Positions 16,783 to 63,792 are shown, numbered from the stretch's first letter. The stretch: DNA of 64,000 bases from Terrimicrobiaceae bacterium (GCA_044375335.1 JBILMW010000002.1:59-64058); one strand, 5' to 3'. Translations and numbers: made by a program. The notes: generated from the letters alone by a model not told the origin.

Positions 16783-16813
16783 TCTTGATGATCTGGAAAT
16801 CCTGAAGAACTGG

Positions 16814-17027: not shown

Positions 17028-17046
17028 ATTCTTCCATCTGTGACTT

Positions 17047-18162: not shown

Positions 18163-18277
18163 GCCAAAAAGCAGAAGAATTTAACCACCGACACGGAAAG
18201 CATAGAGAAACAAAAAGCACAGCAGATAGATGAAATAAATATATAAAATTCTTTCATTATTTCTAAATTAAAATTAT

Positions 18278-42522: not shown

Positions 42523-42532
42523 GGAATGCGGC

Positions 42533-45902: not shown

Positions 45903-45914
45903 GGGGAGTCGGGA

Positions 45915-47090: not shown

Positions 47091-47212
47091 CGGGTTCACA
47101 AACTGGAAAATGCGCCCCAAAGAATCAAGTTCCATATCAGGTGGAATCCTGAAATGTGCGTTCCCCCTCGACGCAGGACGCGCTGCGGTTGATAAAAAGG
47201 CCTCCTTTCTCC

Positions 47213-49594
47213 ATGGCTGCCGACCTGCCTTCCATCTTCATGAAACAAATGTTCCGCTGGCGCGTCGTTTTGATCGCTGTTATTCTCGTGGCGACTGTTG
47301 CCGGGCTGGCCCGCATCCGGGTGGATGCCAATGTTCTTGATCTCTTGCCGCAGGATCTTGTCCCGGTGAAGGGGCTCAAGGTTTTTCTGGGTCATTTCGG
47401 ACAGCCGCGTGAGTTGATCGTCGTGGTCGAGGGCAAGAATGCCGCCTCGGCAGGCGATCTGGCTAATTCCTTGGCTGGAGAACTTCGGTCCTCGCCTGAT
47501 CTCATAGTCCACAGCGCGCCTCCTTGGGCTTCGGACCCTCGCGAGCTTGTTCCTCTCGCCGCTTATGCGCTGCTCAATCAGGCTCCGGATAAATTTCAGG
47601 CGACACTGGAAAACTTATCGCCTGCGAGTGCGGGCGAGCGCGCTGCGGCCGCAGTCGAACGCCTTTCTACCACCATGGCTCCGGAGGAAATCGCCCGCAT
47701 TGCCTATGATCCGCTGAATTTGCTTTCGGCGCTCGCATCCTCCGCCTCGCCGGATATGGCAAACCGCGAGTTTTCCTCGGAGGATGGCAGAACCCGCCTT
47801 CTTTATGTGAACCCCGTCTCGCCGGACCCGCCAAGGGACTGGGTGCTTCAAGCGACTGATCGGATTCGCGAGTGGCAATCAGCCTCGCCTGAGCACATGG
47901 ACGCCCAGGTGGGATGGACAGGCGAGCCGGCATTTGTGCATGAAATATCAAGCGCCATGGAGAGCGACATGCGCGGATCGTCCATTTCTTCGCTCGCATT
48001 CGCTGCGCTCATCTTCTTTCTCGCCTATCGGCGCCTGCGGCCGCTTTGGGGATTGCTTTTTTATGTCTGCTGCAGCTTTGCGATCGCGCTTGGCCTCACG
48101 GCGCTGATCTTTCCAGGGCTTTCAATTATCAGTGTCGGCTTCGCCGCCATCCTTGCTGGGCTGACCGTGGATTACGGCTTCATTTTCTATCAACGGCGCA
48201 TCGAGCATGGAGGCACTCTTCAGGAACTCCGCGCGGCGACAACCCCCGGTATCCTTGCTGGAGCGTCAACCACAGCGGCGGCCTTTTTCAGCCTGAATCT
48301 TTCAGGCCTGCCGGGCATTGCCCAGCTCGGCACCACCGTTGCAATCGGGGTGATGGCTGGCGCTTTGCTCATGATTTTTTTCTATGCGAGCGATCTTCAA
48401 AAAATGCCGCTTCCCGCGCCGCGCCACTCACGCCCTGTCAATCCGCGCCTGCTCGGTTTGGGGAAGACCTTTTCCTTCGCAATCCTTGTGATCTCCGTGG
48501 GCGCCTTGGCGCTGCTCGGTTTTCCCCGCTGGACGACTGACACAAATTCCATGCGACCTCGCGCGAGTGTTGCCTACCCGACACTGGATCGTCTCAGCCT
48601 CGCGCTGGGCAATAATCACGATGTCCTCAACATCATCGCAGCAGGGGAATCCGAATCGATCGTTTCCGAAAAACTCGCCCATGCCCGCGCAGCCCTTGAG
48701 CAGGCGCGGAAAGACGGCCTTATTTCCAGCTTCGACCTTCCCGATGCCCTGTGGCCACATGCGGAGTTTTTAAAAACGAACCTTTCTTCGGCCTCTGTGC
48801 CTATTGCTGATAGTAAGGCCCTCTGCTCGTTGCTGAGCGACGCCGGCTTTTCCGAATCGGGCACTTTTCTTACCAAAGGCATCCTTGATCAATGGCAGGG
48901 CTGGCAGTCATCGGCCTCTCCCTCCTTGCGCGGAAATGCATCTTTTGACTGGATCGCCAGACGCACCATGAGCCTCCTCGGCCCCGACTTTGCAGCGTGC
49001 GGTGTCGCCGTCGAATCTGACCAAAACCCCTCCGCTGTCTCTGAACTCATCGACACGCTGGCCGCACAGGATATCTACATGACTGGATGGCACAAACTCG
49101 GCGACGCCCTCGCGAAGCATGCCCTCGGACACGGCTTATTGGCTGGCGCGGCATTTCTCGCCGTGCTTGGCGCAGCCTTGTTTCTCTCGCTGCGTAGTTT
49201 TCGGGATACGCTGCTCGTATTGGGCATCACAAGCCTTAGCCTTCTGGCAATGACGGGCCTGATGCGGCTCTTTTCGCTGGAGTGGAATTTTCTGAACCTC
49301 TGCTCGGTCACCCTCACCATCGGCGCCGGGGTGGATTACAGCATTCATATGATTTTCGCCCTGCGGCAAAACAATGGCAATGCAACCGCCGCATTCGCGG
49401 ATATCGGAAAAGCTCTCGGGCTCTGCGCGGCCACCACCGTCGCGGGCTTTGGCTCTTTGGCCGCCGCGCAGACCACTGGCTTGGCATCTCTCGGTATCAA
49501 CTGTGCTCTTGGCGTGGCATTGAATGCCCTCTTCGCCCTGTTCCTGCTGCCTGTGCTCTGGCGTTTTTTGATGCGCCGCCCTGCCCGGGAGTGA
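47213..49594 (+). CDS. MMPL/RND-superfamily membrane exporter
   Basis: About 790 aa with two blocks of 5-6 TM segments, each preceded by a large soluble loop. GLTVDYGFIF and GAGVDYSIHM are MMPL-type motifs. Start is ATG 47213 or the ORF-track GTG 47156. Confidence 0.75.
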   Translation: MAADLPSIFMKQMFRWRVVLIAVILVATVAGLARIRVDANVLDLLPQDLVPVKGLKVFLGHFGQPRELIVVVEGKNAASAGDLANSLAGELRSSPDLIVHSAPPWASDPRELVPLAAYALLNQAPDKFQATLENLSPASAGERAAAAVERLSTTMAPEEIARIAYDPLNLLSALASSASPDMANREFSSEDGRTRLLYVNPVSPDPPRDWVLQATDRIREWQSASPEHMDAQVGWTGEPAFVHEISSAMESDMRGSSISSLAFAALIFFLAYRRLRPLWGLLFYVCCSFAIALGLTALIFPGLSIISVGFAAILAGLTVDYGFIFYQRRIEHGGTLQELRAATTPGILAGASTTAAAFFSLNLSGLPGIAQLGTTVAIGVMAGALLMIFFYASDLQKMPLPAPRHSRPVNPRLLGLGKTFSFAILVISVGALALLGFPRWTTDTNSMRPRASVAYPTLDRLSLALGNNHDVLNIIAAGESESIVSEKLAHARAALEQARKDGLISSFDLPDALWPHAEFLKTNLSSASVPIADSKALCSLLSDAGFSESGTFLTKGILDQWQGWQSSASPSLRGNASFDWIARRTMSLLGPDFAACGVAVESDQNPSAVSELIDTLAAQDIYMTGWHKLGDALAKHALGHGLLAGAAFLAVLGAALFLSLRSFRDTLLVLGITSLSLLAMTGLMRLFSLEWNFLNLCSVTLTIGAGVDYSIHMIFALRQNNGNATAAFADIGKALGLCAATTVAGFGSLAAAQTTGLASLGINCALGVALNALFALFLLPVLWRFLMRRPARE

Positions 49595-49676
49595 ATGTAA
49601 ATCTTGAGATCCGTAAGCGCAGAGACAGGCTGGGCTTTACAACCCTTCCCATGCTGTTAGATTGTCCTCTCGATTG

Positions 49677-49750
<74 letters not shown>

Positions 49751-49761
49751 TTTCTTCCCGC

Positions 49762-50832
49762 TTATTCGAGCGTGTCGTCCAATGCGGCGAGCAGAGTTGC
49801 GATCGATTCGCGTGTTTCGTCGCCCATGTTCGAGATGCGGAAGGTTTTTCCTTTGAGTTTGCCGTAGCCGCCATCGATGACGAAGCGGTGTTTCTCACGG
49901 AGGCGTTTGATCCAGGCCGCGACATCGATCTCGCGGTTGTTTTTTACGCAGGTCAGGGAGAGCGAGCGGCGGCCTTCGGGTGCGAAGAACTCGAATCCAC
50001 GGGCGGAGAGCCACTCGTGCACCTGTGTGTTCAGCGCGGCGTGGCGTGCGTGGCGTGCGTCGACGCCCTCGCTAAAAATGTCATCCAGCTTGGATTCGAG
50101 CGCATAGATCAACGAAATAGCCGGTGTGCTGGGCGTCATGTCCTGTTCTTGGTTTTTGGCGAATTCCACAAAGTCGAAATAGTATCCGCGGTCCTTGATC
50201 GACTCGGCGCGTTTCATCGCGCGCTCGGAGACGGCGAAGAGCGCCAGGCCGGGAGGCATGGCCAGCGCTTTCTGGCTGCCTGTGAGCAACACATCGATGC
50301 CGAGATCATCCATAGGAATCGGCTGGGTGGAAAAAGAGGACACGCTGTCCACGATGAACATCACCTCGGGGAATTCACGCAGGACAGCTGCGATCTCGGG
50401 AAGCGGATTGCGCACGCCGCAGGAGGTTTCGTTGTGGATGAGGGTGAAAGTATCGAATCCACCCTCGGAGAGTTTGGCGCGGATCATGTCCGGCTCGATG
50501 GACTGCCCCCACTCGACTTGCAGCGCCGCAGCCTCTTTGCCACAGCGCTTGCTGACATCAAACCACTTGTCCGAAAACGCGCCGCACATGCCGTTGAGGA
50601 CTTTTTTTGTCGTGAGATTCCGGATCGCGCCTTCCATGACTCCCCAAGCCGACGAGGTGGAGAGAAAGACTGGGCGCTGGGTGCCAAAGAGGGTTTGCAG
50701 GCGTGGCTGGATGCCGCCGTAGAGTTTTTTGAACTCCGATCCGCGGTGGCCGATCATCGGCGTGCACATGGCGCGGAAGGTTTTTTCGGAGACTTCGATC
50801 GGACCCGGAATGAAGAGCTTGATGTGTGACAT
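49762..50832 (-). CDS. class V pyridoxal-phosphate aminotransferase (serine/alanine-glyoxylate or phosphoserine aminotransferase-like)
   Basis: MSHIKLFIPGPIEVSEKTFRAM, FTLIHNETSCGV and LLTGSQKALAMPPGLA (PLP lysine). Start at 50832. The antisense ORF 49693..50829 is rejected. Confidence 0.8.
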   Translation of the reverse strand: MSHIKLFIPGPIEVSEKTFRAMCTPMIGHRGSEFKKLYGGIQPRLQTLFGTQRPVFLSTSSAWGVMEGAIRNLTTKKVLNGMCGAFSDKWFDVSKRCGKEAAALQVEWGQSIEPDMIRAKLSEGGFDTFTLIHNETSCGVRNPLPEIAAVLREFPEVMFIVDSVSSFSTQPIPMDDLGIDVLLTGSQKALAMPPGLALFAVSERAMKRAESIKDRGYYFDFVEFAKNQEQDMTPSTPAISLIYALESKLDDIFSEGVDARHARHAALNTQVHEWLSARGFEFFAPEGRRSLSLTCVKNNREIDVAAWIKRLREKHRFVIDGGYGKLKGKTFRISNMGDETRESIATLLAALDDTLE

Positions 50833-50931
50833 GGCAAAAAAGTGAAGCCGCCATGTTACGGCCGATACGAGGCCGATGACGAAGAAATTTTGCAATCCTG
50901 CGAGCCTGCCGCCAAGATTCCCGCATTCCCA

Positions 50932-52047
50932 ATGGCCGCAAAAAAATCTTCATCAGCGATTCACTTCATCAGCGGCTCGGATGACGCCGCCGTCAAGCGC
51001 GCCGCCTCTGAACTCGCCGCCACGCTGGCTCCAGGCGCAGATGCGTTTGGTTTGGAAATTATCGATGGGGCAGTGGAAACAGTTGATGCCTCCATCGCCC
51101 GCACCCGGGAGACGATGCAATCCCTCGCCACCATGCCGTTTTTGGGCGGCACGAAACTGGTCTGGTTGAAGAGCGCGACCTTTCTTGCCGATAGCGTCGC
51201 CGGCCGTTCGGACAATGTCATCACGGTCGTCGAGCAGCTTTGCGACCTGCTCGATGAAGGTTTGCCGGATGGCGTCACTTTTCTTCTCAGCGCGCCGGGT
51301 GCGGACAAGCGCCGCTCTGCCTATAAGCGCTTCTCGAAAGCCGGGAGCACTACTCTGCACGACAAGCCAACGCTGGGCTTCGGCGCGGGCGAGGAGGAGA
51401 TCATCACCTGGACCATGCAGCAGGTGCGTGCCCGAGGGTTGAAAATCTCGGCGGATGCCGTCGAAGTGCTCGCCGCCCGCGTCGGCCTTGATTCCGCACA
51501 ACTCCACAGCGAACTCGATAAAATCGAAACTGCCTTCGGTCCCGGCCACCCCGTTGGCGAGCGCGATGTGCGCGACCTCGTCCCGGCGACACGCGAGAGC
51601 GGCGTCTTTGATATCGGCAACGCCATCTCCGCCCGAAACCTCCCGCTGGCTCTTGAAACGCTCGAGCAACTTTTTTACCAAGGCGAAAAAGGTGTCGGCA
51701 TCCTGCTGGCATCGATCGTTCCGACGGTTCGAAACCTACTGCTCGCGAAAAGCCTCCTCATCCGCCACAAGCTCCGCCCCCCCGCCGAGGCCCAGTATTT
51801 CTCAGGGACACTTGCAAAACTCCCAGCCGAAGAAACAGATTTTCTGCCCCGCAAAAAGGACGGCACCCTCAACGCCTACGGCCTCGGCATCGCCGCCAAA
51901 AGTTCCGTTCACTATGAGCTCGAAGAACTCCAGCGCGCCTTCCACGCCTGCGCCGACGCCAATCTCCAACTCATCACCAGCCAAGGCGCGGAGGATGTCG
52001 TCCTGACACGACTCCTCATCGGCTTCATGGGCAGGCCAGCAGTGTGA
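50932..52047 (+). CDS. holA: DNA polymerase III subunit delta
   Basis: About 371 aa. IHFISGSDDAAVKRAASEL, FLGGTKLVWLKSA and a later helical domain. Start is ATG 50932. Confidence 0.6.
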   Translation: MAAKKSSSAIHFISGSDDAAVKRAASELAATLAPGADAFGLEIIDGAVETVDASIARTRETMQSLATMPFLGGTKLVWLKSATFLADSVAGRSDNVITVVEQLCDLLDEGLPDGVTFLLSAPGADKRRSAYKRFSKAGSTTLHDKPTLGFGAGEEEIITWTMQQVRARGLKISADAVEVLAARVGLDSAQLHSELDKIETAFGPGHPVGERDVRDLVPATRESGVFDIGNAISARNLPLALETLEQLFYQGEKGVGILLASIVPTVRNLLLAKSLLIRHKLRPPAEAQYFSGTLAKLPAEETDFLPRKKDGTLNAYGLGIAAKSSVHYELEELQRAFHACADANLQLITSQGAEDVVLTRLLIGFMGRPAV

Positions 52048-52109
52048 GAAAAGCGGGCGCGGTTTGGGTTGGTTAAAACTGGCAGGCTATACTCTATCCG
52101 GCTCGAGTT

Positions 52110-53885
52110 TTATCGCTTTCCTTTGGACTTACCGGTCAGCAAGGCGGCGGCTTTGGAATTCTTGGAAATGAATTTACTGAACTTGGACAGATTGATTTTT
52201 CCACTAGGCGATTTCACTCCAGCCGGAGCCAACTTGACGGCTTTGGCCAAGTTGGATTTTGACACACCCAAGATTGTTGCGACATCGCTTGCGCTTCTTG
52301 AAGCTGGAGAGCCTTGAGCCAACGCAGCTTGGATTTTCATGTTGAGTAGGCTTCTGACTGCGCCTGCTGTTGAGGCATCGGAGAGTGATGTGTTTGTCGA
52401 CGAAATCGGTTTTTGAGAACTCACCGTGAGGGGCTTCAGGGCGCTACCAAATTTTTCTGGATTATCCTTGGGATTAAAACCGGCGATTTTCGCATCCGAG
52501 GTCGCAACATAGACGAAATTCTTGTAGCCAGTGACAAAACCCCCGTTCGGTGCGCTGGTCGAGGGATTAGTATTGTTCCATGTTCCAATATACGGAACAA
52601 ATGGTCCTTCTTGCTGATACGCAGTATTGGTCTTGGCGATGGGGCCAATACTATACCACTGGTCTCCGTTCGGTTTGTTGGCGTAAAACCAGATTTGATC
52701 ATCCTTAATTAAAACACCAAAAGTCACAAAGTCCGAAGTAGGCGCCCCGCCAACCACTGACCAGTCCGCAGCTTTCTGGTTTACCCCATCCTGCCCATTT
52801 ACTGGACTCTGCAACCAGCCCGTTGCGTTTCCATTTGGAAGATTTACTTGGGGTCCGGGAGGAGTGCTCGTTGTTGCGCCATAGCCGTTCCAGCTTGTTT
52901 CCATAATATCAATCTCTCTGCCGTATCCCCCTGCCCCCCCTGCAGCACTGCCATCCAAATAACCACTCACTCCGGGATACAAGTCTTTTCGCTCAGCGAG
53001 ATAGAATGTTTCACAAAATGTCTGCGCTCCGCCAACCAATGTGTTGAGGGTGCCGTTAGACCCGATTTTGATATCGATTTGCCAGCAGCCATCATAAGCC
53101 ACGCCGGTTCCATCGGTGGCGCTCCATTCGCCTGTTGTTGAATTTTGCGTTAATTGGACTGCATAAGCCCTGCTTCCGGAACCATATCCTTTAATATTTT
53201 TCGTGGATTGCCAGATGGCACCATCCTCTGCATACCACCGATAATCATCAGGTTCTGAGGTGTTTGGTGTAAAATCCATACCATAATCGATCCCCCAGAA
53301 ATTCAACCCGGAGACCCCGATCGCTTCGGAGTTGCCCAGTCCATTCGACCACCCGGCGTTCGAAATCACTGCTGGCCCCAGATTAAAGCTGGCAGGATAG
53401 ATACTTAAATCATACCACCAACGCTCATCCCATGCACTACTACCAGACGTGCTTTTGGATGCATTGTAAGTAAATTGAAGAGTTGCTCCCTGGAGATAAG
53501 TGGAATTTCCACTAAAATTTCCAGAAGAATACGGATAATTCTGCCCAGATGCAATCCCTGGAGGGGGCACATCGCCAGAGGTTACATACTTTGTTTTTGC
53601 GGTAATGCTTCCCAATGGAGTCCCGTTCGCAGCCCAAATATTCATGTTTAATGAATTGAATATAACATAACCCCAACTAGCACCTGAACTCGGAACGAGT
53701 ATTGTCCCGACGGGGGGATTTAACGCCTGACTAGAACCAGAGTTAGAATAAGGAACCCCGCCGGTCACCTCCAAGGCAAAGCCATAGTCCTCCGCAATAC
53801 CCCATTGCATAATGCAAGGGTTGTCATCTGCTCGAACAATGGAGGAAAGGATCAGCGTAGTTAATAAGGTGCTTAAGAATTTCAT
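52110..53885 (-). CDS. secreted protein with possible GH16/ConA-like glucanase core and shared C-terminal basic HTH-like module
   Basis: Signal peptide MKFLSTLLTTLILSSIVRA. GREIDIMETSW contains the ExDxxE core of GH16-type catalytic motifs (only a partial match to the full signature). The last 76 aa are homologous to the tails of 53927..55078 and 55959..57419. Confidence 0.6.
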   Translation of the reverse strand: MKFLSTLLTTLILSSIVRADDNPCIMQWGIAEDYGFALEVTGGVPYSNSGSSQALNPPVGTILVPSSGASWGYVIFNSLNMNIWAANGTPLGSITAKTKYVTSGDVPPPGIASGQNYPYSSGNFSGNSTYLQGATLQFTYNASKSTSGSSAWDERWWYDLSIYPASFNLGPAVISNAGWSNGLGNSEAIGVSGLNFWGIDYGMDFTPNTSEPDDYRWYAEDGAIWQSTKNIKGYGSGSRAYAVQLTQNSTTGEWSATDGTGVAYDGCWQIDIKIGSNGTLNTLVGGAQTFCETFYLAERKDLYPGVSGYLDGSAAGGAGGYGREIDIMETSWNGYGATTSTPPGPQVNLPNGNATGWLQSPVNGQDGVNQKAADWSVVGGAPTSDFVTFGVLIKDDQIWFYANKPNGDQWYSIGPIAKTNTAYQQEGPFVPYIGTWNNTNPSTSAPNGGFVTGYKNFVYVATSDAKIAGFNPKDNPEKFGSALKPLTVSSQKPISSTNTSLSDASTAGAVRSLLNMKIQAALAQGSPASRSASDVATILGVSKSNLAKAVKLAPAGVKSPSGKINLSKFSKFISKNSKAAALLTGKSKGKR

Positions 53886-53926
53886 ATTTATAATTTAAAT
53901 GTTTTGAAATGAGTTTTAACTTGAAT

Positions 53927-55078
53927 TTACTGCTTTTTATTTCGTTTTTTTGAGGTTTTACCTTCTAACAGGGCGGTATTTTTTGAGTTTTTCAAAAAGA
54001 ATTTATTGAGTTTGGAGAGACTAATTTTTCCGTTGGATGATTTGACTCCGGCTGGCGCTAATTTTAGGGCCTTGGACAAGTAGGATTTTGACACGCCCAA
54101 AATGGACGCTATGTCGCCCGCGCTCCGTGTATTTGCAGAACCTTGCGCCAGCGCGTTTTGGATTTTGCTACTATAGTCCGAACCCACCATAGGCCTTACC
54201 GGCAACACGGATGGGGTGGAGCTTTCTTCATCCAACATGCTTTGCGTTGGGAAATACTGCTGGTAGTAACTGTAGTTAACCTGTCCTTCGGAACTATTAC
54301 TGATGTCTGTTGCAACCTGCTGTGGGATGGCAGTCCAGTAGGCAGGCATAAGTGCCGCCAATTCCGGATTGAGCGTGTAAATCAAACAAAAGTTGACGAT
54401 CCAGAGCGGAGGGATCATCGACATTCCGACTTTCACGGAAGAGCTATCGGTCAGGTTGTAAGATACCAACTGCGCTTTGCCTGAACTATTTTGTGATAGG
54501 ACACTGTAAACAGCTTCCGTTGTGTAGGCTAAACTGTAGAGATTTTCAAGCGATTTTGTGGCACCATTTGCCTTGCACCAAGTCTCCATCCAGCCTCCTG
54601 GAGCAAGAATTTCGTTGACAGTCCGGCAAGGAGAAGTCTCCTGTGCACAGCTTTCCAACAATCCATCCTCATTGACGGTTAATCCATAGCTTCCGAGGAC
54701 AATGGTGGTTGCATTGCCGTTTATGTTGCGAACGATAGGATTTTGTTTTGTGTTTGTCAGGATGAGGGTTGCATCTGCGATCATCAATGCATTAGTCAAA
54801 TTACCTCCGTAACCACCGCCGGTAATGAAGGTAAAAAACTGTATTGGTGTGAAACATTTGTCTTTCTGCAGTCCAAACGCTTGAGCCAGTTCGTCAGCCT
54901 TAGTTTGGCCGATTGGCTGATTGATCTTTCGAGTGTCTGTCGACTCAACCCGAGTCGGAGCATAGCGCTCGTATATTTTTGATCCACAATACGGTTCAGC
55001 AAAATATCCTTGTCCAAACAAGGCTGTGTTCCCCGCGAATGCCAACGCTAAGGAAAGTGTAAAAGTGATTTTATTCAT
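53927..55078 (-). CDS. secreted protein of unknown family with shared C-terminal basic HTH-like module
   Basis: Signal peptide MNKITFTLSLALAFAGNTALFG. The N-terminal roughly 270 aa are paralogous to 55126..55962. The last 80 aa carry the shared module. Confidence 0.7.
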   Translation of the reverse strand: MNKITFTLSLALAFAGNTALFGQGYFAEPYCGSKIYERYAPTRVESTDTRKINQPIGQTKADELAQAFGLQKDKCFTPIQFFTFITGGGYGGNLTNALMIADATLILTNTKQNPIVRNINGNATTIVLGSYGLTVNEDGLLESCAQETSPCRTVNEILAPGGWMETWCKANGATKSLENLYSLAYTTEAVYSVLSQNSSGKAQLVSYNLTDSSSVKVGMSMIPPLWIVNFCLIYTLNPELAALMPAYWTAIPQQVATDISNSSEGQVNYSYYQQYFPTQSMLDEESSTPSVLPVRPMVGSDYSSKIQNALAQGSANTRSAGDIASILGVSKSYLSKALKLAPAGVKSSNGKISLSKLNKFFLKNSKNTALLEGKTSKKRNKKQ

Positions 55079-55125
55079 GATCCGGGACTTTGATTGGTTA
55101 TTCGGAAATCTTCTTCTGATCGATT

Positions 55126-55962
55126 TTACTGCTCAAGATATTGTTTAAAATCACTGTAGTTTAACTGTCCCGTGGGACTTGCCATGAGAGCTTCTTTAAC
55201 TGGTGTCGGTATGGGCGTCCAATAAGCGGGCATGAGTGCTGCTAAATCGGGATCCAACACATAGACCGCAATAAAATTAACGATCCAAATCGGAGGAATC
55301 ATCGACATTCCCACATAAGCAGACGCGGCACCCGACTTGTATTCAACCAACTCAGCATTTTTCTCGGCGATGATTTGGGATATGCTTCCATAAATAACCC
55401 CGTCTCTCAGAGCCTTGGATGCCCAGAACATGATCATGGAATCTTCAGCACCATTTGCCTTAAACCAAGTTGGTAAATAGCCGCCAGGTGCCAGAAGTTC
55501 ATTGGCTTTTCTGCATGGTGAAGAGTCTTGTGCGAGGCTTTGAAGTTTTCCATCCTCATTCACCATAAGACCATAACTACCCAGCACAATTGGCGTTGGA
55601 ACGCCGTTGATATTGCAAATGATGGGATTATCCTTCGAGTTGATAAACCAATTCGTTGCTTGGTTCAAAATGAGAGTCTCTGTCATATTGCCTCCGACTC
55701 CGCTCCCTGAGATTAATTGAAGAAACTTCATCGAGCTGAGGCATTTTCTTTTTTCAATTCCGAAGATTTTAGCGAGTTCATCAGCTCTTTCCCTTCCGAT
55801 ACCTTCGTGGAGCTTTGGGCTCGATGCATCGATGGGGGTTGGCGTGTATTTCTCCCATTCCTTTTCTCCGCAATAAGGCTCTGAAAAACCTTGGCTATAT
55901 GATGTGGCGCTGAGCGCCAAGAGGACAGCTAAAAAAGCCCGTGAATGCTGCGTTTTTTTCAT
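55126..55962 (-). CDS. secreted protein of unknown family (paralogue of 53927..55078 lacking the C-terminal module)
   Basis: Signal peptide. Conserved blocks EPYCG.K..E.Y.PT, IVLGSYGL.VNEDG, VGMSMIPP.WIVNF and LAALMPAYWT.IP are shared with the downstream paralogue. The ATG overlaps the upstream stop (ATGA). Confidence 0.7.
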   Translation of the reverse strand: MKKTQHSRAFLAVLLALSATSYSQGFSEPYCGEKEWEKYTPTPIDASSPKLHEGIGRERADELAKIFGIEKRKCLSSMKFLQLISGSGVGGNMTETLILNQATNWFINSKDNPIICNINGVPTPIVLGSYGLMVNEDGKLQSLAQDSSPCRKANELLAPGGYLPTWFKANGAEDSMIMFWASKALRDGVIYGSISQIIAEKNAELVEYKSGAASAYVGMSMIPPIWIVNFIAVYVLDPDLAALMPAYWTPIPTPVKEALMASPTGQLNYSDFKQYLEQ

Positions 55963-57419
55963 TGTTTTGATTTTTTCTTATTCTTTTCTCCAGAAGATTT
56001 GTTCCCGCTTCCGCTGAGCTTCGACTTTCCCGACAGGATGCCGGCGGCCTTCGAGTTTTTGGAAAGGAATTGACTGAGCTTGGAGATGTTAATTTTTCCT
56101 TTGGATGATTTGATTCCTGCCGGGGCCAATTTCAGGGCTTTGGACAAGTTGGATTTGGATACACCCAAGATGGCTGCGACATCACCCGTGCTTCGTGATG
56201 TGGCGGAGCCTTGTGCCAAAGCGGTCTGGATTTTGCTTTTGACGAGGTATTTCACCTCCTCGACGGACTGAGCTGCCAAGATCGAATCGGATGTCTTCGA
56301 ATGAGAGGGCGTTCCATCGGAGGAATTTGAGTTTGTTCCACTTTCGGCGCTGACATTGTTTACGTTCAATAACTGCTTGTTGCCATTCGGATTGCTAGCT
56401 TTTTTGACAGCGTAGGCCGTGCCGCTAGCTAAGATCGGGTTAACGGGTGTGGCAGACCCAACAGAATACCAGTTCGCGCCGGATTTATAGTATGTGCCTG
56501 ACGCTCTGATATCTGAATCACCCACGAACAGTAAATCTCTCAACGATCCAGAAGTGGAAGGGGCGAAATTTTCATCATTAAGTCCAATATCTGAAATGAG
56601 ATACGAAGAAGCTCGCGGCAGCACAAAGAGCGTTTTCAAATCCTCGGTAGGGGAGGAATAAAGCGTAATGCGAAATGGGGTTTTTAGGACAGTGCCGGCG
56701 AAATAGGCATCGATGGAGAAACTCCCGATACCTGTGTTTTGCATGTAGAGGTAGCGGCCCGGTGGCACTGGCACTCCACCAGCAGATACAGTCGGCTCGG
56801 ACTCACTGGCCCAGTTCTTCAAGGAGTGGCTGAAGTAAAACTTTTGCCCTTGGTTCTGTGGTATTTGGGCACCTGATACTGTGACTGGGCTGAGAATCAG
56901 CTTGGTCATGATGTTTTCCGTATTCCTGGTTGGAATGAACGCCGCACCGGCTCCGCTGGCTGGGAAAAGGGTCTCGAGCGTCCAATACGGCCGAACATCG
57001 ATGGATGTAATATTTACGGAGGACAGGGTTTCGCCTTGGGTATCAATGACGATTTGGGAGGCCGTGTTTGAGATCACGCTGTAAAAAGCCCCCGTCGACG
57101 AACCAGCTGTTACTAGAGCGTAATAAACTGGATAAACCTTCTTGTTGTATGCATCTGCCAAGACCGGTGCGTTGTATGCATCGAGCGGCGGGTTGCCGGC
57201 TAATAGGAGCGTTGTTGAATTTCCAGATGTCGAGACACTTGAGATGGAGAGCAGCGCAACCGACGGTTGCTGAAACTCTGGTGCGATGACGGCCGTCTCT
57301 TGTGCAGCTACGGCGATATACTGTTGACCGCCAGTCACCCCAGAAATCCCCGACTCTTGATCAAAGGCTATGGCAACCAGTTGAAAGCCTGCGAGGAGGG
57401 CGAAAAAAGATTTCTTCAT
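55959..57419 (-). CDS. secreted protein of unknown family with shared C-terminal basic HTH-like module
   Basis: Signal peptide MKKSFFALLAGFQLVAIA. The motif VRPYWTLETLFP recalls a secreted PVC-group protein family (from memory, unverified). The last 92 aa carry the shared module plus a long Lys/Ser tail. Confidence 0.7.
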   Translation of the reverse strand: MKKSFFALLAGFQLVAIAFDQESGISGVTGGQQYIAVAAQETAVIAPEFQQPSVALLSISSVSTSGNSTTLLLAGNPPLDAYNAPVLADAYNKKVYPVYYALVTAGSSTGAFYSVISNTASQIVIDTQGETLSSVNITSIDVRPYWTLETLFPASGAGAAFIPTRNTENIMTKLILSPVTVSGAQIPQNQGQKFYFSHSLKNWASESEPTVSAGGVPVPPGRYLYMQNTGIGSFSIDAYFAGTVLKTPFRITLYSSPTEDLKTLFVLPRASSYLISDIGLNDENFAPSTSGSLRDLLFVGDSDIRASGTYYKSGANWYSVGSATPVNPILASGTAYAVKKASNPNGNKQLLNVNNVSAESGTNSNSSDGTPSHSKTSDSILAAQSVEEVKYLVKSKIQTALAQGSATSRSTGDVAAILGVSKSNLSKALKLAPAGIKSSKGKINISKLSQFLSKNSKAAGILSGKSKLSGSGNKSSGEKNKKKSKQ

Positions 57420-57434: not shown

Positions 57435-59696
57435 TTAGGCCCTAACCGAAGTGGGTTCTGATGCGTTTTCATCTGCCTTGGGGAACCAAGCCAATCGATA
57501 GAAGGCTTTATGGTCAGTGACAGCAGAAGTTACCCATACAGGGCCATTGTTGCCAATAATTGGAGACATAACCGTGCCGTCTGAATTCTTCGCAGGTCTC
57601 CAAGTCTTTTGGTCCGTTGAAGTTTGCAACTGGTATTGGGTGTTTGAACGGGAGAGCCAAGTGATCTGCAGTTCGTTTTTGATCAACCCAGAATCCCTAT
57701 ACTCGAAATGCTGCACTTGGAAATCCTCCGGCGGCACGGCTGGACGCTGATTCAGAGGCGTGAGTTTCGTATCAATCGCCGCTTTCAATTTCGCCTCCAT
57801 TTCAGTGCGTTTGGCCACGAGTTCAGGCGTGGCTTTTTTATCGCCACTCTTGTTCTCTGCCCACTCCGAGTAGTTCGTGTATTCCGCGGCCTTCCCGGTT
57901 GTGCCGGTCAAGCCATTATCCTGATCCGTATCAGTGCCGCCATTTGCTTTGCTGCGAAGATCATAGAACTCGCTTTGTGGAGCCTGAACGCCATTTCCGT
58001 CGAAGTAATAAGCGTATTTGTAATCCTTCTCGATCAAAGTGCGGAGGCGATTAGGCGGGTTGACGAGTCCGTTGGGATTGCTCGATTCTTCCTGTCCGCA
58101 GTAGATATCATCGAATGTGAAAAGAATGGAATCCTGAACGGCCGGACCGGCGGGATTGCTCATCAACCGACTATAATCCACGCCTCTTAAATCATAACCG
58201 GCGGTATTAATTCCAACCAGCGAACAGAGTGTTGGAAGAAAATCCACATGCGAAACGAGTTGATCGCAGACTTGGCCGGTTGGAAAGTCGACGGGGTTCG
58301 ACCAAACCAAAGGAATATTCAGCACTTCCTCATAGCACATGAAGGATTTCTGACGCAGTCCACCATGTGTCATGGCGCCATCGCCGTGATCGGAGGAGAA
58401 AATGGTCCACGAATTATCCCTAAGATTTCTGGCCTTGTCAGGATCGACGCCGTCAGCTTCACCGTCCAACAAATCCAAAAGCTTAGACAGTTTGCGGTCG
58501 TTCATCTTCATCAAATTCCCGTAGAAATTCAGGTATTTCAGCTTTTTTGTATCATCATTTACCAAGCCAAGGCCGAGGCTTTTCACCTTAAATTCCTCTT
58601 GGCAGGTGGGCTTCAAGTTTACAAGCAACTTTTCATCTGCTGTTGGTGGAACTTTGATCCTCAAATCCTTGCCATCTGCTTCAATGGGTCCCGTATGTTC
58701 TGACCATGGAGATTCTGAGTAAGGGTGAACGCCAGAGCCTATGTTGCCTGTGTAATAACCATCATAACTCCAATAACCGCCTTCGATATAAGTTCCATTT
58801 CCACCATCTGCCACGGAAATGCCAGGGCATCCCAGAACATCGTGGGGATTGATCAAGCAGATCATGAGGCAAAAGGGATTTCCACCCGGATTGGCAATTT
58901 TTTCTTTGAGGAAAGCATAGGCGCTTTCAAGTTCCGCTTCCGGATTTGGAGTGCCTTCCGCTTGAGTAAAAATTAATTCGGGATTAGCTAAAAACTGCTC
59001 CTTGGAGGGACCAGTCTCCTTGACCCAAGTAGATCCATCAAAATATCTTCCATCATTATCCGGATTGCCGCCGCCGTAATTGGGCATTTTGGCATCGCCA
59101 CCCGCATCGGGGGAGTTCCATTTATTCATTCCGTAGCGTGCGATGTCATCCGAGGTGGAAGAGTCATCGGGGTTATCGACGCCCTTGCTCATATGCCACT
59201 TGCCTTTCCAGACGACATCGTATCCCGCCGCCTTGAAAATGGTGCCTATGTTTGGAAGGGTCGGGTCGAGCTGGTGCTCTTGCATGGACTGGCTCATCCC
59301 CTCAGAGAGCGTATCGAAATTCCTGTGCTGTGCCGGGTAGAGACCGGTGAAGAGAGTCGTGCGGGCGGGGGTGCACATGGCTGTGTTTGTGTAAGCGCGG
59401 GTGAAAGACACGCCCTTGTTTCTGAGGCGGGTCAGACCGGGCAGGTTGGCCGCCTCCCATCCTTCTGGAAACCAGCGGAGATTCTGTTGCTGGTCTGTGG
59501 TGAAGAAAATAATATTGCGGCGTTGGCCGATGGCTTCAGCGGCTTCCGCTGCGGATGGCCAGAGATTGACAGCGCCTTGAACCGCCATGAGCGCACCGGC
59601 ACCGCCGACCATTCTTAAAAAGTCGCGGCGCTTGACTTGATCAAAGAGCGGCTTGGTTTTTTCGGTCTCGATGCTGGGTGGCTGGTCGTTGATCAT
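57435..59696 (-). CDS. Tat-signal formylglycine-dependent sulfatase with C-terminal extension
   Basis: Twin-arginine signal KRRDFLRMVGGAGALMAV. Sulfatase N-terminus IIFFTTDQQ. Formylglycine motif CTPARTTLFTG (CxPxR) and SDHGD. 753 aa, so about 200 extra C-terminal residues. Confidence 0.85.
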   Translation of the reverse strand: MINDQPPSIETEKTKPLFDQVKRRDFLRMVGGAGALMAVQGAVNLWPSAAEAAEAIGQRRNIIFFTTDQQQNLRWFPEGWEAANLPGLTRLRNKGVSFTRAYTNTAMCTPARTTLFTGLYPAQHRNFDTLSEGMSQSMQEHQLDPTLPNIGTIFKAAGYDVVWKGKWHMSKGVDNPDDSSTSDDIARYGMNKWNSPDAGGDAKMPNYGGGNPDNDGRYFDGSTWVKETGPSKEQFLANPELIFTQAEGTPNPEAELESAYAFLKEKIANPGGNPFCLMICLINPHDVLGCPGISVADGGNGTYIEGGYWSYDGYYTGNIGSGVHPYSESPWSEHTGPIEADGKDLRIKVPPTADEKLLVNLKPTCQEEFKVKSLGLGLVNDDTKKLKYLNFYGNLMKMNDRKLSKLLDLLDGEADGVDPDKARNLRDNSWTIFSSDHGDGAMTHGGLRQKSFMCYEEVLNIPLVWSNPVDFPTGQVCDQLVSHVDFLPTLCSLVGINTAGYDLRGVDYSRLMSNPAGPAVQDSILFTFDDIYCGQEESSNPNGLVNPPNRLRTLIEKDYKYAYYFDGNGVQAPQSEFYDLRSKANGGTDTDQDNGLTGTTGKAAEYTNYSEWAENKSGDKKATPELVAKRTEMEAKLKAAIDTKLTPLNQRPAVPPEDFQVQHFEYRDSGLIKNELQITWLSRSNTQYQLQTSTDQKTWRPAKNSDGTVMSPIIGNNGPVWVTSAVTDHKAFYRLAWFPKADENASEPTSVRA

Positions 59697-59896: not shown

Positions 59897-61141
59897 TTGA
59901 ATACGCAATCGCCCATTTCCAAGAACTTCCATGTGATGGCCAAGCCCATTGGCCCGATCTGCAATCTCGATTGCACTTACTGCTATTACCTTGAAAAGGA
60001 ATCCCTTTATCCCAAGGGTGAGGATTTTCGCATGAAACCCGATGTGCTGGAGGCATATATCCAGCAATACATCGAATCCCAAAATACCTTTGAGGTGACC
60101 TTTGCCTGGCAAGGCGGCGAGCCCACATTGCTGGGGTTGGACTACTTCCGCAAAATCGTGGAGTTGCAAAAAAAATACGCCCATGGTCGTGCCATCAATA
60201 ACACGCTTCAGACGAATGGAACCCTGCTCAACGACGCATGGTGCCAATTTTTTGCCGAGAATAAATTTCTGATTGGGCTCAGCATCGATGGTCCTCGTCG
60301 CCTCCACGACACATATCGTGTGGACAAGGGCCAGAAGCCAACCTTCGACCGTGTCATGCAGGGATTGGAACTGCTTAAAAAACATCGCGTCGAATTCAAC
60401 ACGCTCACCGTCGTGAGTGCCACCAATGCGAAACATGCCATCGATGTCTATGACTTCCTGCGCGAGGTGGGATCCGGCTATATCCAATTCATTCCGCTTG
60501 TGGAGCGGCTGCCAGCGCCTGGCGAGAAATCCACGGGCCTCGATTACGCCGAGCCACCGGAGCCGGGCCAGGCGGAATCTCCCGTCACGCGCTGGAGTGT
60601 CCCCAGCGAGATGTATGGCGAGTTTCTGATTTCCATCTTTGATGCCTGGGTGCGGCGGGATGTGGGCAAGGTTTTCGTGCAAATGTTCGATGTCTCCCTC
60701 GGCATCTGGTCCGGCCATGGCCCGGGTCTCTGCTTGTTTCTCCAAGATTGTGGAGAAGGCCTCGCGCTCGAACACAATGGAGATTTGTTCTCCTGCGACC
60801 ACTTTGTTTATCCCAAATTCCAATTGGGAAATATCATGAACAAGTCGATCGCCAGCATGGTGAATTCGGCCAAACAAAAACAATTCGGCGAGGCCAAATC
60901 CTCGACGCTGCCGAAATTTTGCCGCGAGTGCGATGTGCGATTCGCCTGCCATGGCGAGTGCCCGAAACACCGCTTCACAAAGACTCCAGACGGGGAAGAT
61001 GGTTTAAATTACCTCTGCTCTTCTTACAAAAAATTCTTCCATCATGTGGACCCCTACATGAAGCAGATGACCGCATTCATGCGGGCCCGGCAGGCTCCGG
61101 CGAACATCATGAATATGGATTTTGATGCTTTGAAAAAGTAG
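59897..61141 (+). CDS. anaerobic sulfatase-maturating enzyme (radical SAM/SPASM)
   Basis: HVMAKPIGPICNLDCTYCYY (CxxxCxxC) and C-terminal Cys clusters CRECDVRFACHGECPKHR (SPASM). Divergent from the sulfatase operon. TTG start 59897 (alternative ATG 59936). Confidence 0.85.
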   Translation: MNTQSPISKNFHVMAKPIGPICNLDCTYCYYLEKESLYPKGEDFRMKPDVLEAYIQQYIESQNTFEVTFAWQGGEPTLLGLDYFRKIVELQKKYAHGRAINNTLQTNGTLLNDAWCQFFAENKFLIGLSIDGPRRLHDTYRVDKGQKPTFDRVMQGLELLKKHRVEFNTLTVVSATNAKHAIDVYDFLREVGSGYIQFIPLVERLPAPGEKSTGLDYAEPPEPGQAESPVTRWSVPSEMYGEFLISIFDAWVRRDVGKVFVQMFDVSLGIWSGHGPGLCLFLQDCGEGLALEHNGDLFSCDHFVYPKFQLGNIMNKSIASMVNSAKQKQFGEAKSSTLPKFCRECDVRFACHGECPKHRFTKTPDGEDGLNYLCSSYKKFFHHVDPYMKQMTAFMRARQAPANIMNMDFDALKK

Positions 61142-61193: not shown

Positions 61194-61904
61194 CTACCGG
61201 TCGTGGACGATCTCGTCGATGTCTTTTTGAATATCGGCCTGAAGTCGATTTGACTGTAGCTTGGCGCGCAATCCCTCACGAATTCTTTGCTGAGCAGCGG
61301 GATCTTGTCTCACCAGAATCAAGTAATCTTCCAAGGTGGATAGGGCACTGAAGCGCACATCCTCGGAGGAATCCTCCAAAGCGCCCAGAAGGGTATCGAT
61401 GGTCGATACCGAGGGCTTGCCCAATGTGGAGAGGCCGAGCGCGGCGGCGCCTCTGATTTTCGGGTTTTCTTGGCTCTTGAGATATCCCACCAGGATGAGC
61501 TCATTCACCGGGCTTGGGTAGGCCCCTAAAAGTTTCAGACCCTCGATGCGTTGATGTTCATTGGTAGAGGCGAGGAGTTGCTGAGCGCGCGCGAGTTCGC
61601 TTTTCTCTGGCGCATCCTCGACTACAGGGCTTGGCTTTCGAGGGGCGGATAACATCTCCGGTGCAGGTGGCCGGTGGTTTTCGATGGGCGGGTGCCCTGT
61701 CGAGCTGCGTGCGTGTTCTTTTTTTTGCGGTGCCTCTTGACTCGGAGGGTGAAGTGCCAAGCGAAGGATACCCCCCAGAAGCAAGACGACAATAACTCCC
61801 AGGCCTAAAATGGGCTTGGATACACTACTCACAGGATTTTTGATAGGGGCCTGAGGCATTCCAAAGCAAGTTCGGATTAGGTCTTCCTCAAATTTTGCCT
61901 CCAA
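61194..61904 (-). CDS. membrane-anchored HEAT-repeat protein
   Basis: One TM segment (ILGLGVIVVLLLGGILRL), a Pro-rich linker, then HEAT-like repeats (NPKIRGAAALGLSTLG; SEDVRFSALSTL). Start uncertain (61904 TTG or 61859 ATG). Confidence 0.55.
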   Translation of the reverse strand: MEAKFEEDLIRTCFGMPQAPIKNPVSSVSKPILGLGVIVVLLLGGILRLALHPPSQEAPQKKEHARSSTGHPPIENHRPPAPEMLSAPRKPSPVVEDAPEKSELARAQQLLASTNEHQRIEGLKLLGAYPSPVNELILVGYLKSQENPKIRGAAALGLSTLGKPSVSTIDTLLGALEDSSEDVRFSALSTLEDYLILVRQDPAAQQRIREGLRAKLQSNRLQADIQKDIDEIVHDR

Positions 61905-61953: not shown

Positions 61954-63609
61954 TCAGATTTTCTTGGCGTTGTATTTTTTAACCCAGTTCTTGGATTTTT
62001 TGGAAACCGTTTGCTTTGATCCCCCGTTGGCTTTCTTGTTGGAGGCGAGCTTGTTTTTTACTGTGCCCTTCTTCGGTTTTTGGACTTGAGACACATCAGA
62101 ACTTGTTGCGCCGCTGTTTGCTGTCGTTGCAGGCGCAGTGGCTATCAGTCCGCCCCACCAATCACTCGCATTTTCCTCAGATGCTATCGGAATGGAGGGA
62201 TTTACTATTGGACCATGCTGGCCTACCACAGCAGGCGGGACATATGTGCCATTCAGAGAGGATCCCAGCGGTCCATAAACACGCAACATCACGGAGAAGC
62301 GACCGGCAGGAATCGGCAGGACATTCGGCCCCACACTTGTTTCTGCATCGCCAATGGTTTTTAAAGTGATTGTTATGGACCCGTTGCCATTTTTTACAAG
62401 GCCGGGCGTGTAAGAAGCTACAGCATATTTGTTAGCGGCATTTGGAACGAGTTCAATCGCATCACTCGTATACGCGGTGATTGACCAGAATCTCTTGTAT
62501 TGAGGCAATTGATCCGCTTCGAAAGTAATGGTATAAGTCTTGTTTCCCGCACCTGTGAGCATGTCACTATGGTTGTCCAAGAAAGCTTGTGCGTAGTAAG
62601 CGGCCTTTTTGGTGTTGCCGTATTGGATAAATAAATTGCCGGACGAGCGATCGGTATAGTCCTCGCCCCAATTTCCCATGTTATTAAAGTGGACCCAGTT
62701 GTTGCCAATTGTATGGAAGTGCCAATTCGCAAGAATTTCATCATGGGCCGCTCTTACTCCAGCGCAGAAATCCGAAAGACTTGAGATAGAGCCTCCAAGC
62801 GCCTCCGCCTTGGCCGCAAAAAATTTCTCTTTAAAGATGTTTATCAGGGTCTTATCGCTATCGGAAAGTGGAGTCGTCGATGAGTTCTCCATAGCCGCTT
62901 GTAGAAGATCGAGAAACGCCTTGGGTTCGGTCTGGGCGAGCAAATCCACGGCTGTTTTCATTGGGGTATCGAAATGGTCTTCGATGGGAAGTATTTGGGT
63001 TTCTCCACCTGATATCGGATTGGAAAGCCAAGCGCTGAGCGATTGCAGTCTTGTAGCTCTCCTGAAGGTTTCCGCTGCGGTTTGAGTGTCAATGTATGTG
63101 GTTCCATTGAGGGTATATCTGTCAGTGCGAATCGCTAATTGCGTCCAATTTTGAGGAACTTGAATCTTTATAACGCCCGAAGGAAGTTCACCCGAATAGT
63201 TAGGTCCAACCAGCGCATAGGTTCCCCCAGCAATCGTCGGCTCAAGTTCAGTCGATAGAATCGTCCCGAAAACATCCACTTGAACAATCGAATAAGAATA
63301 TTGGTAAGCTGGAATGGTCAGAATCTGTGGCTCGTCCGTAAGATTCAGTGTTGCCGATGTGTAGAGCGTATCGACATTGATCGCAACGACAGCCTTGTAA
63401 GACGGACTCATCGGATTTTCTGGTCCTATGAGGGTATTCTTGAGCCCATTGGGCGCAATCTGGCTGGCATAAGTCTGGAATCTCGGGAGGTAACGAATGG
63501 TATAGTTGTAGGCTGTAACGAAATCCGCTCTGCTGGCGAGGGCTAATTCTGGCGTTGCCAATGCGCAGATGGTCAACGCAAGAAGGCTGAGGGTTTTTTG
63601 CAGTTTCAT
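61954..63609 (-). CDS. secreted DUF1254/DUF1214-like protein with Lys-rich C-terminal tail
   Basis: Signal peptide MKLQKTLSLLALTICALATPELALA. ..AYNYTIRYLPRFQTY.. and ..YKRFWSITAYTSD.. resemble DUF1254 and DUF1214 blocks. Tail is KPKKGTVKNKLASNKKANGGSKQTVSKKSKNWVKKYNAKKI. Confidence 0.6.
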   Translation of the reverse strand: MKLQKTLSLLALTICALATPELALASRADFVTAYNYTIRYLPRFQTYASQIAPNGLKNTLIGPENPMSPSYKAVVAINVDTLYTSATLNLTDEPQILTIPAYQYSYSIVQVDVFGTILSTELEPTIAGGTYALVGPNYSGELPSGVIKIQVPQNWTQLAIRTDRYTLNGTTYIDTQTAAETFRRATRLQSLSAWLSNPISGGETQILPIEDHFDTPMKTAVDLLAQTEPKAFLDLLQAAMENSSTTPLSDSDKTLINIFKEKFFAAKAEALGGSISSLSDFCAGVRAAHDEILANWHFHTIGNNWVHFNNMGNWGEDYTDRSSGNLFIQYGNTKKAAYYAQAFLDNHSDMLTGAGNKTYTITFEADQLPQYKRFWSITAYTSDAIELVPNAANKYAVASYTPGLVKNGNGSITITLKTIGDAETSVGPNVLPIPAGRFSVMLRVYGPLGSSLNGTYVPPAVVGQHGPIVNPSIPIASEENASDWWGGLIATAPATTANSGATSSDVSQVQKPKKGTVKNKLASNKKANGGSKQTVSKKSKNWVKKYNAKKI

Positions 63610-63792
63610 GGTTTTGAGATAGGTGTGGTGGACGGTGATTTGGAATTGCCAGAGGCTGGCATCTGATCACTGAAATTAAACCAGCTCACGATGGGTTGAT
63701 CTCCACTCAAGTCGAGCGCGACTCGGCGAATCCGGCAAAAAACTCGTTGAATAGGGCATTTCAAAACCCTATGTCGCGTTGACCTGCAAAGC

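Follow-up and report, generated by a model that had tools for sequence, protein, structure and literature searches.

Our analysis deals with a window of 64,000 nucleotides (the whole stretch of DNA that was analysed) from a freshwater Terrimicrobiaceae bacterium (GCA_044375335.1 JBILMW010000002.1:59-64058), in which three neighbouring genes of the minus strand, P1, P2 and P3, encode exported proteins that end in one and the same basic domain, hereafter called the tail. The first-pass annotation of this DNA had proposed a new modular C-terminal domain, and this proposal is borne out by our data, as the tail occurs on at least six unrelated exported architectures from several species. The modular, helix-turn-helix (HTH)-like C-terminal domain on exported proteins is real, and its function is what we infer below.

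A basic C-terminal domain shared by exported proteins

The three open reading frames (ORFs) and the C-termini quoted for them in the first-pass annotation are indeed present, and the shared stretch of about 70 positions that it had described amounts to 70 gap-free positions (from 'KIQ' to 'GK') with 71-74% amino acid identity and, as it had also remarked, a similar coding DNA (71-77% identity). A fourth ORF of the same block, P2b, had been missed.

52110..53885, minus strand: P1 (591 aa), signal peptide, predicted GH16-like domain, S/T-rich linker and cationic tail
52110..52340, minus strand: P1 tail module (75 aa plus stop, net charge +14)
52341..52448, minus strand: P1 S/T-rich linker, approximate recombination junction (from the sliding-window identity switch and blastn block edges)
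53927..55078, minus strand: P2 (383 aa), signal peptide, unknown Cys-containing domain, linker and cationic tail
53927..54169, minus strand: P2 tail module (79 aa plus stop, net charge +15)
55126..55962, minus strand: P2b (278 aa), tail-less P2 paralog with signal peptide
55959..57419, minus strand: P3 (486 aa), signal peptide, TIGR02597 domain, S/T/N-rich linker and cationic tail
55959..56237, minus strand: P3 tail module (91 aa plus stop, net charge +17, longer disordered Lys/Ser extension)

When the window is translated in six frames, a profile of the tail matches exactly three copies, with E from 1e-45 to 1e-49, and has no other match below E = 0.4. Between these copies the synonymous divergence (dS) is 0.9-2.0 and the ratio of nonsynonymous to synonymous divergence (dN/dS) is 0.09-0.16; the tail is under strong purifying selection at the protein level. 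Because of these values we regard it as a selected protein domain and not as a DNA repeat, and recent gene conversion or a DNA-level repeat among the three copies is ruled out by the same dS range and a dN/dS of about 0.1. The charge of the domain is extreme: 15-19 lysines and arginines stand against one or two acidic residues, which gives a net charge of +14 to +17, compared with -4 to -14 for the N-terminal parts.

These N-terminal parts are mutually unrelated, as had been claimed: comparisons of P1, P2 and P3 by BLASTP yield no similarity (all E > 0.6). The Sec signal peptides assigned to the three proteins look genuine by hydropathy and composition, since P1, P2 and P3, and likewise P2b, each show a basic n-region at the start, followed by a hydrophobic core (Kyte-Doolittle mean over 10 residues > 2.0) and a c-region of small residues. 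All complete carriers of the tail, inside and outside of the window, possess signal peptides, and no carrier contains a 19-residue hydrophobic window besides this signal peptide. The absence of any other transmembrane (TM)-like segment implies that the tail is exported along with its cargo, and the idea of a cytoplasmic tail held behind a hidden TM segment was rejected on the same ground.

Predicted fold of the tail and its kinship to HTH proteins

In the AlphaFold2 (AF2) model of the tail, built from a 19-sequence alignment, a helix (residues 2-14) is followed by a strand (20-22), two helices (23-30 and 34-43), a second strand (54-56) and two further helices (57-66 and 68-74). The core is predicted with a local confidence (pLDDT) of 86-89 and the Lys/Ser-rich basic end is disordered. 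The most conserved residues (LGVSKSxLSK, GKI, K59 and K69) map to the HTH and the wing, and it is through the HTH/wing face that winged-HTH domains classically bind their ligand. A strong amphipathic membrane-binding helix is not compelling, as a single 11-residue window reaches a hydrophobic moment (muH) of 0.57. The tail is a previously uncurated, clade-restricted C-terminal domain, in which a winged-HTH-like core of ~60 residues is predicted to be extended by a disordered Lys/Ser stretch.

The tail was scanned against the family libraries Pfam, NCBIfam and PHROGs and against PDB sequences, and structures were compared by Foldseek (PDB, BFVD). No significant match was obtained in Pfam, NCBIfam, PHROGs or PDB. 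Pfam and NCBIfam return only sub-threshold HTH families (HTH_10, MarR_2, HTH_5, KorB, HTH_AraC and sigma-factor region 4; E 0.015-0.2), all of which fall on the stretch 'DVA.ILGVSKS.LSKALK', and HTH_17 is not matched at E <= 1. The sub-threshold families of PHROGs are excisionases (E 0.013-0.05), regulators and small terminases, and the PDB sequence search with the tail profile gives CadC/ArsR at E 0.24 only. The Foldseek matches, likewise not significant, comprise RacA and Rex (E 1.0-1.8; Rex with a root-mean-square deviation of 2.1 A over 58 residues), ArsR and MarR in the PDB, and a phage HTH protein (E 0.23, probability 0.93, TMt 0.64), PrtN, MerR-like HTHs and excisionase in BFVD. Most, not all, of the best superpositions are HTH proteins; EF-hand pairs are among the weak ones.

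The only statistically meaningful HTH link comes from the exhaustive profile search, in which P0036, a protein made up of several HTH units, is matched by the tail profile (E 6.4e-4 for the whole library). Pfam recognises the repeat units of this protein as HTH_50, HTH_23, LacI, HTH_17 and others, and hhalign aligns tail residues 16-43 to one such unit with 73% probability over 28 columns. We conclude that the HTH motif in the core of the tail is genuine and that the predicted topology around it is of the winged-HTH, excisionase/MerR-like kind; the domain probably derives from a cytoplasmic excisionase/MerR-like HTH. Its membership in the HTH_17/excisionase family is unproven. Thus the HTH_17/excisionase-MerR reading of the first-pass annotation stands as far as the motif (with the P0036 link) and the compatible AF2 topology are concerned and falls short on the family, since HTH_17 is not matched and all Pfam, PHROGs and Foldseek matches stay below threshold.

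The likeness to winged HTHs of the excisionase/MerR kind (HTH_17, PF12728; Xis, PrtN, the N-domain of RacA) lies in the 'A.ILGVSKS.LSK' HTH, the loop, the short beta wing (GKI), the C-terminal helix and the predicted order beta-alpha-alpha-beta-alpha. Unlike these proteins, the tail has an extra N-terminal helix, a C-terminal helix with a disordered Lys/Ser end and its high positive charge, it lacks a significant profile or fold match to them, and it sits on Sec-exported proteins instead of cytoplasmic ones. Another parallel is offered by the linker histones H1/H5, in which a winged-helix globular domain and a Lys-rich tail bind polyanions with little sequence specificity. In the tail, likewise, a small fold resembling a winged helix is joined to a C-terminal extension that is disordered and rich in Lys, Ser and Ala; however, the tail is bacterial and extracytoplasmic, no homology to H1/H5 was detected, and H1/H5 are absent from the top fold matches.

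Carriers of the tail and its addition to existing proteins

In all of the 26 recovered carriers the C-terminus lies 0-8 residues beyond the end of the module. It is preceded by a linker rich in S, T, N and P, with a PT repeat at locus L006, and S/T/P-rich or PT-repeat linkers are typical of extracytoplasmic multidomain proteins. The at least six unrelated exported architectures are the GH16-like P1, the P2 family, TIGR02597 (P3), glycoside hydrolase (GH) family GH8 (PF01270, E 8.8e-10), choice-of-anchor I, and choice-of-anchor I with PATR, the last three being found outside the window. In one carrier a He_PIG domain accompanies choice-of-anchor I (the latter by NF038117, 352 bits against a cutoff of 300), and a carrier of more than 1,270 aa combines He_PIG, choice-of-anchor I and PATR repeats. 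Proteins of such kinds commonly have anchors or binding modules. The choice-of-anchor families owe their name to C-terminal anchors that differ across lineages. The sea-urchin and other metazoan choice-of-anchor-I homologs, the MSP130 proteins, are anchored by glycosylphosphatidylinositol (PMC11878542), and PATR repeats are normally part of autotransporter passengers (Pfam description).

The domain of P1 preceding the linker has no match in Pfam, NCBIfam or PDB sequences. Its AF2 model (pLDDT 87, predicted TM-score (pTM) 0.85, 51-sequence alignment) matches GH16 structures (Foldseek E 1e-6 to 1e-4), and the motif E304-I-D306-x-x-E309 is invariant in 51 homologs. The earlier remark that P1 is ConA/GH16-like thus holds at the level of predicted fold and motif. 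This N-domain (window 52350-53825) represents a widespread GH16-like family of ~400-440 aa without a Pfam model, characterised by an invariant 'GREIDIMET' and a conserved C-terminal 'NPKDNPEAFG'; the family also occurs in Cysteiniphilum, Neisseriaceae and many metagenomes, and a few of its members are fused to unrelated modules (tectonin-like PF19193, DUF4214 or repeated 'LEIGPRSF' units). The N-part of P3 belongs to TIGR02597 (E 4.6e-24; 85 bits against a cutoff of 50). Neither the N-part of P2 nor P2b has a Pfam, NCBIfam or PDB sequence match; the two are 50% identical (E 1.6e-91), and P2b stops where the linker of P2 begins. P2 and P2b are tandem paralogs of an uncharacterised exported family with conserved Cys, of which P2 alone has the tail.

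The same N-domains are found with and without the tail, as P2 and P2b show within the window. Relatives of P3 with at least 67% identity are 465-486 aa long, and the tail is present in the three that were read (P0022, P0037 and P0061, a deletion variant); relatives at 43-65% identity are 350-362 aa long, and the five that were read stop at the TIGR02597 boundary without another anchor. The same division of lengths is seen for P1, whose relatives with at least 69% identity have 575-637 aa, whereas more distant ones mostly have 404-445 aa and end in '...NPKDNPEAFGxAL'. As close relatives have the tail and distant ones end before the linker, tail and linker together are a clade-specific accretion. 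An anchor swap, in which tail-less relatives would possess PEP-CTERM or another anchor, was rejected, because the TIGR02597 relatives that were read and most members of the P1 family just end; the tail is an add-on and not a replacement, since the tail-less relatives end at the domain boundary. Two variants of the P3 family, P0061 (378 aa) and P0030 (256 aa), have an internal deletion that joins the middle of TIGR02597 directly to linker and tail; P0030 also shows an unrelated N-terminus and a broken tail and is probably an assembly chimera.

Distribution of the tail

A word-indexed search of 5.8 billion proteins gave 21 matches to the tail, all of them short (48-169 aa). When the contigs were read, these matches turned out to be pieces of larger proteins that a contig end or a scaffold gap of 100 N had interrupted, and stand-alone small HTH proteins were rejected as an explanation, the contigs showing truncated fragments of large exported proteins. 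C-terminal fragments of such exported proteins, P0016, P0017, P0019 and P0095 from Joint Genome Institute (JGI) metagenomes, are labelled 'predicted XRE-type DNA-binding protein' or 'transcriptional regulator', a misannotation caused by the HTH-like motif together with the contig truncation.

An exhaustive HMMER search of 1.84 billion representatives clustered at 50% identity yielded no more than 23 proteins (E <= 1e-3). In a set of 185,579 species-representative genomes, four loci were recovered with one peptide pattern, LGVSKSxLSK, all of them in metagenome-assembled genomes (MAGs) of Verrucomicrobiota: two Terrimicrobiaceae from Lake Mendota, one genome labelled Chthoniobacter flavus and one labelled 'Verrucomicrobia bacterium'. 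A metagenome scan contributed 13 further tail loci. The module is accordingly found well beyond the three neighbours in the window, and the local remnant that the first-pass annotation had allowed for can be dropped. The tail is confined to one small clade, in which all named carrier genomes are Verrucomicrobiota MAGs (Terrimicrobiaceae and Chthoniobacter-like).

Exchange of the tail between carrier genes

The P1-P3 block is part of a gene island whose further members and conserved flank are the following.

50842..52047, plus strand: holA-like gene (DNA polymerase III delta; PF06144, PF21694), conserved flank convergent with the P1 tail, in synteny with locus L005
52280..63711: variable cassette of ~11.4 kb (blastn against L005)
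57435..59696, minus strand: sulfatase with a signal of the twin-arginine translocation (TAT) type (PF00884, E 8e-32; TIGR01409, 19.8 bits against a cutoff of 16.7)
59897..61141, plus strand: radical-SAM/SPASM enzyme (PF04055, PF13186)
61194..61904, minus strand: HEAT-repeat protein, far end of the island
61954..63609, minus strand: DUF1254/DUF1214 protein, far end of the island

In a tree of 47 tails the choice-of-anchor-I carriers form a distinct subtype, and the remaining tails are not grouped by carrier. Compared with its counterpart at locus L003, the N-domain of the window P1 has a dS of 0.34 (90% amino acid identity) and the tail a dS of 1.12 (77%); the closest relative of the P1 tail is the tail of a GH8 carrier at locus L007 (dS 0.32, 86%). 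In sliding windows the identity of P1 shifts from L003-like to L007-like at ~52,340-52,430, and the blastn block edges agree. From this linker/tail DNA the homology between the window and L007 continues on the holA side past the stop codon and into holA, with an identity of up to 98%. In the more distant, island-bearing loci L002 and L003 the homology with the window ends precisely at the stop codon of P1. For P2 and P3, tail and N-domain give concordant results. Exchange of the tail between carrier genes is shown by these comparisons at the level of sequence.

A second comparison concerns L005, a 267-kb Terrimicrobiaceae contig that is 95.9% identical to window positions 42381-52084 and 91% identical to 63711-64000 in blastn. 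Between these flanks, L005 (8453-10082) contains a promoter region, a GH8 N-domain and the tail, of which the tail-coding stretch is the only part common with the window; the window has instead of this GH8-tail gene an island with DUF1254/1214, HEAT, maturase, sulfatase, P3, P2b, P2 and the P1 N-domain. A 290-nt upstream block, which lies beside a LytS/LytTR two-component system, precedes six GH8 carriers, and the edges of the variable segment are this block and the tail-coding DNA. On the simplest reading of the sequence comparisons, a cassette would have been replaced by homologous recombination, the crossovers lying in the upstream block on one side and in the tail-coding DNA on the other. 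The 11.4-kb island is a presence/absence polymorphism between near-conspecific genomes (96% flank identity).

Function of the tail

We favour, tentatively and at slightly less than an even chance, the view that the tail tethers its cargo, electrostatically and without a covalent bond, to an anionic polymer outside the cytoplasmic membrane. The HTH-like tail is exported together with the attached enzyme or adhesin domain, and its polycationic character would then keep this cargo on the polymer. It is the charge, the C-terminal position, the linker and the types of carrier that lead to this view. The ligand would most plausibly be the cell's own envelope (lipopolysaccharide (LPS) or an acidic or sulfated surface glycan), because the adhesin-like choice-of-anchor-I/PATR proteins and the TIGR02597 proteins have no obvious polysaccharide substrate to be targeted to. 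The GW modules of Listeria InlB, which are SH3-like, serve as non-covalent cationic anchors that bind lipoteichoic acid and heparin. The proposed mode of the tail is comparable, that is, a basic C-terminal module with a non-covalent hold on an anionic envelope polymer; however, the fold is unrelated, the host is a diderm and, unlike that of GW modules, binding by the tail is only proposed. At E <= 1 no Pfam or NCBIfam match to SLH, LysM, PG_binding, SPOR, SH3b/GW or carbohydrate-binding module (CBM) families was found, and our literature searches found no earlier description of the tail module.

Some observations weigh against the tether. The HTH fold matches are not significant, as Foldseek with the tail model gives nothing at E < 0.2 (best E 0.23 and 1.0). 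The 19 loci show no recurrent partner and no sortase-, protease- or secretin-like neighbour, so that a conserved partner gene is missing. Only one to three carriers are seen per recovered locus. Lastly, a sulfatase or a sulfotransferase adjoins some carriers, and a sulfated substrate fits this as well as the cell's own envelope does.

One could extend the tether by the evidence for exchange: within a verrucomicrobial clade of fresh waters, an ancestral cytoplasmic excisionase-like HTH would have been exapted as an extracellular polycationic tether (to envelope glycan, LPS or extracellular DNA), and its coding sequence would double as a homology arm for swaps of enzyme cassettes. In this complete form we consider the scenario possible though doubtful.

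The layout of linker plus small domain is also that of a CBM, and one would argue that a charge of +14 to +17 directs enzymes to sulfated or acidic glycans or to environmental DNA, concentrating them on the substrate and not on the cell. Most carriers are glycoside-hydrolase-like, the operon of the window starts with a sulfatase beside a gene resembling a sulfatase maturase, and one carrier adjoins a sulfotransferase. However, the tail is also found on TIGR02597 and giant choice-of-anchor-I/PATR proteins, which have no obvious polysaccharide substrate, the cellulase neighbouring the carrier at L007 uses ordinary CBM2 modules, and the usual substrates of GH8 and GH16-like enzymes are neutral glucans. 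We therefore hold substrate targeting of this sort to be unlikely.

The genes around the carriers include the LytS/LytTR two-component system, a lytic polysaccharide monooxygenase (LPMO10)-CBM2-GH9 enzyme, a sulfatase with a gene like that of an anaerobic sulfatase-maturating enzyme (anSME), and a sulfotransferase. At L007 (2821-4647) the gene beside the GH8-tail carrier encodes LPMO10-CBM2-CBM49-GH9 and is truncated by the contig end; its presence implies that the same organisms also use conventional CBMs on secreted cellulolytic enzymes. At L001 (801-1625 and 9068-10529) the genes downstream of a GH8-tail carrier encode a sulfotransferase, a number of methyltransferases and an ABC exporter of the C39-peptidase kind together with its membrane-fusion-like partner.

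Strict C-terminal position on unrelated Sec-exported cargo would equally suit a folded sorting or secretion signal that, like the C-terminal domain of the type IX secretion system (T9SS CTD), is read by dedicated machinery, which would move the cargo across or onto the outer membrane and perhaps cleave the signal off. Choice-of-anchor-I and PATR proteins bear sorting signals elsewhere, and restriction to one clade is a property of many sorting systems. In being modular, strictly C-terminal, clade-restricted and attached to unrelated signal-peptide proteins, the tail does resemble PEP-CTERM/exosortase, LPXTG/sortase, GlyGly-CTERM/rhombosortase and the T9SS CTD. Unlike these domains, it has no signature motif, TM helix or beta-sandwich, and no cognate processing enzyme was found. 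The first-pass annotation had already kept the module apart from PEP-CTERM, LPXTG, GlyGly-CTERM and the T9SS CTD for want of a hydrophobic helix, and rightly: the 19-residue hydropathy maximum is <= 0.97 in every tail, Pfam and NCBIfam give no match between the tail and any of the four, and a check for described anchoring or sorting domains in the same libraries brought nothing significant. The window contains no PEP-CTERM-like ORF anywhere, and the predicted structure is mainly helical, as opposed to the beta-sandwich of the T9SS CTD (~80 aa). Moreover, no conserved cleavage-type motif precedes the domain, the few carriers per locus and the 19 loci lacking a recurrent sortase-, protease- or secretin-like neighbour count against dedicated machinery, and the extreme positive charge with its disordered basic end suits binding better than recognition. 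A sorting signal is thus distinctly unlikely.

A shared C-terminal module of ~70 aa following a linker on several different glycoside hydrolases is also the classic signature of the cellulosome, and the weak EF-hand pairs among the fold matches are in line with a dockerin-like module that plugs enzymes onto a common surface scaffold protein. Yet the tail differs from dockerins in lacking the duplicated Ca-binding loop-helix, a Dockerin_1 match and a visible scaffoldin. A dockerin-like internal duplication was rejected, as the halves of the tail are unrelated (hhalign probability 0.5%); the one or two acidic residues make Ca-binding loops impossible, and no repeat-bearing scaffold gene is seen in the loci. 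Docking is in our opinion very improbable.

A functionless tail, be it a duplication remnant or shared recombination-promoting DNA, might be suspected from the three ~230-nt direct repeats within 5 kb and the cassette junction inside tail-coding DNA; it is scarcely credible, since the low dN/dS with synonymous sites near saturation contradicts a remnant, the reading frame is kept in every independent assembly and a folded core is predicted with confidence. The notion that the tail is a genuine cytoplasmic DNA-binding HTH of membrane-bound or cytoplasmic regulators, for which the HTH likeness and the JGI labels speak, has a practically negligible probability, as it is contradicted by the signal peptides on all complete carriers and the lack of a TM segment that would leave the tail in the cytoplasm, and the 'regulators' of the annotations are pieces of large exported proteins, broken off at contig ends or at a scaffold gap.

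Gene block and other features of the window

P1, P2, P2b and P3 are packed on the minus strand behind the sulfatase, with gaps of 15, -4, 47 and 41 nt from the sulfatase to P1. The start of P2b overlaps the stop of P3 by 4 nt (ATGA), which suggests translational coupling. The radical-SAM/SPASM gene at 59897-61141 most likely encodes an anaerobic sulfatase-maturating enzyme, a role assigned from its domains and the adjoining sulfatase. The GC content of the P1-P3 block is 46-51%, compared with 58-60% in the flank on the holA side. Promoter and terminator scans gave counts near shuffle expectation and were uninformative.

The only RNA gene detected in the window is a tRNA-Pro (TGG) at 49677-49750, which lies 2.4 kb from the island edge and within the L005-syntenic block; an aminotransferase-like ORF and holA are placed between it and the edge. 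A second block of low GC content (36-49%) at 2600-18200 is an ordinary Wzx/Wzy-type cluster for surface-polysaccharide biosynthesis, with a Polysacc_synt flippase, five GT4 glycosyltransferases, one GT2 and a weak Wzy_C-like membrane protein.

Implications

With 23 clusters among 1.84 billion representatives, the tail is so narrowly distributed that its general importance is limited. Modular C-terminal anchors and sorting tags allow the cell-surface proteome to be predicted from sequence, and the label 'XRE-type DNA-binding protein', which automated pipelines give to tail fragments, is misleading. If binding were confirmed, this would be, to our knowledge, one of few known cases of an HTH fold working outside the cell. 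A tether of this kind would provide a compact cationic tag that is perhaps useful for surface display or immobilisation, and if the scenario of exaptation and homology arm were true, surface display would gain a new fold class with built-in shuffling of secreted enzymes. For the organisms themselves, the cassette polymorphism shows how secreted glycan-degrading enzymes can be exchanged rapidly among closely related lake bacteria, with a shared module as the driving element.

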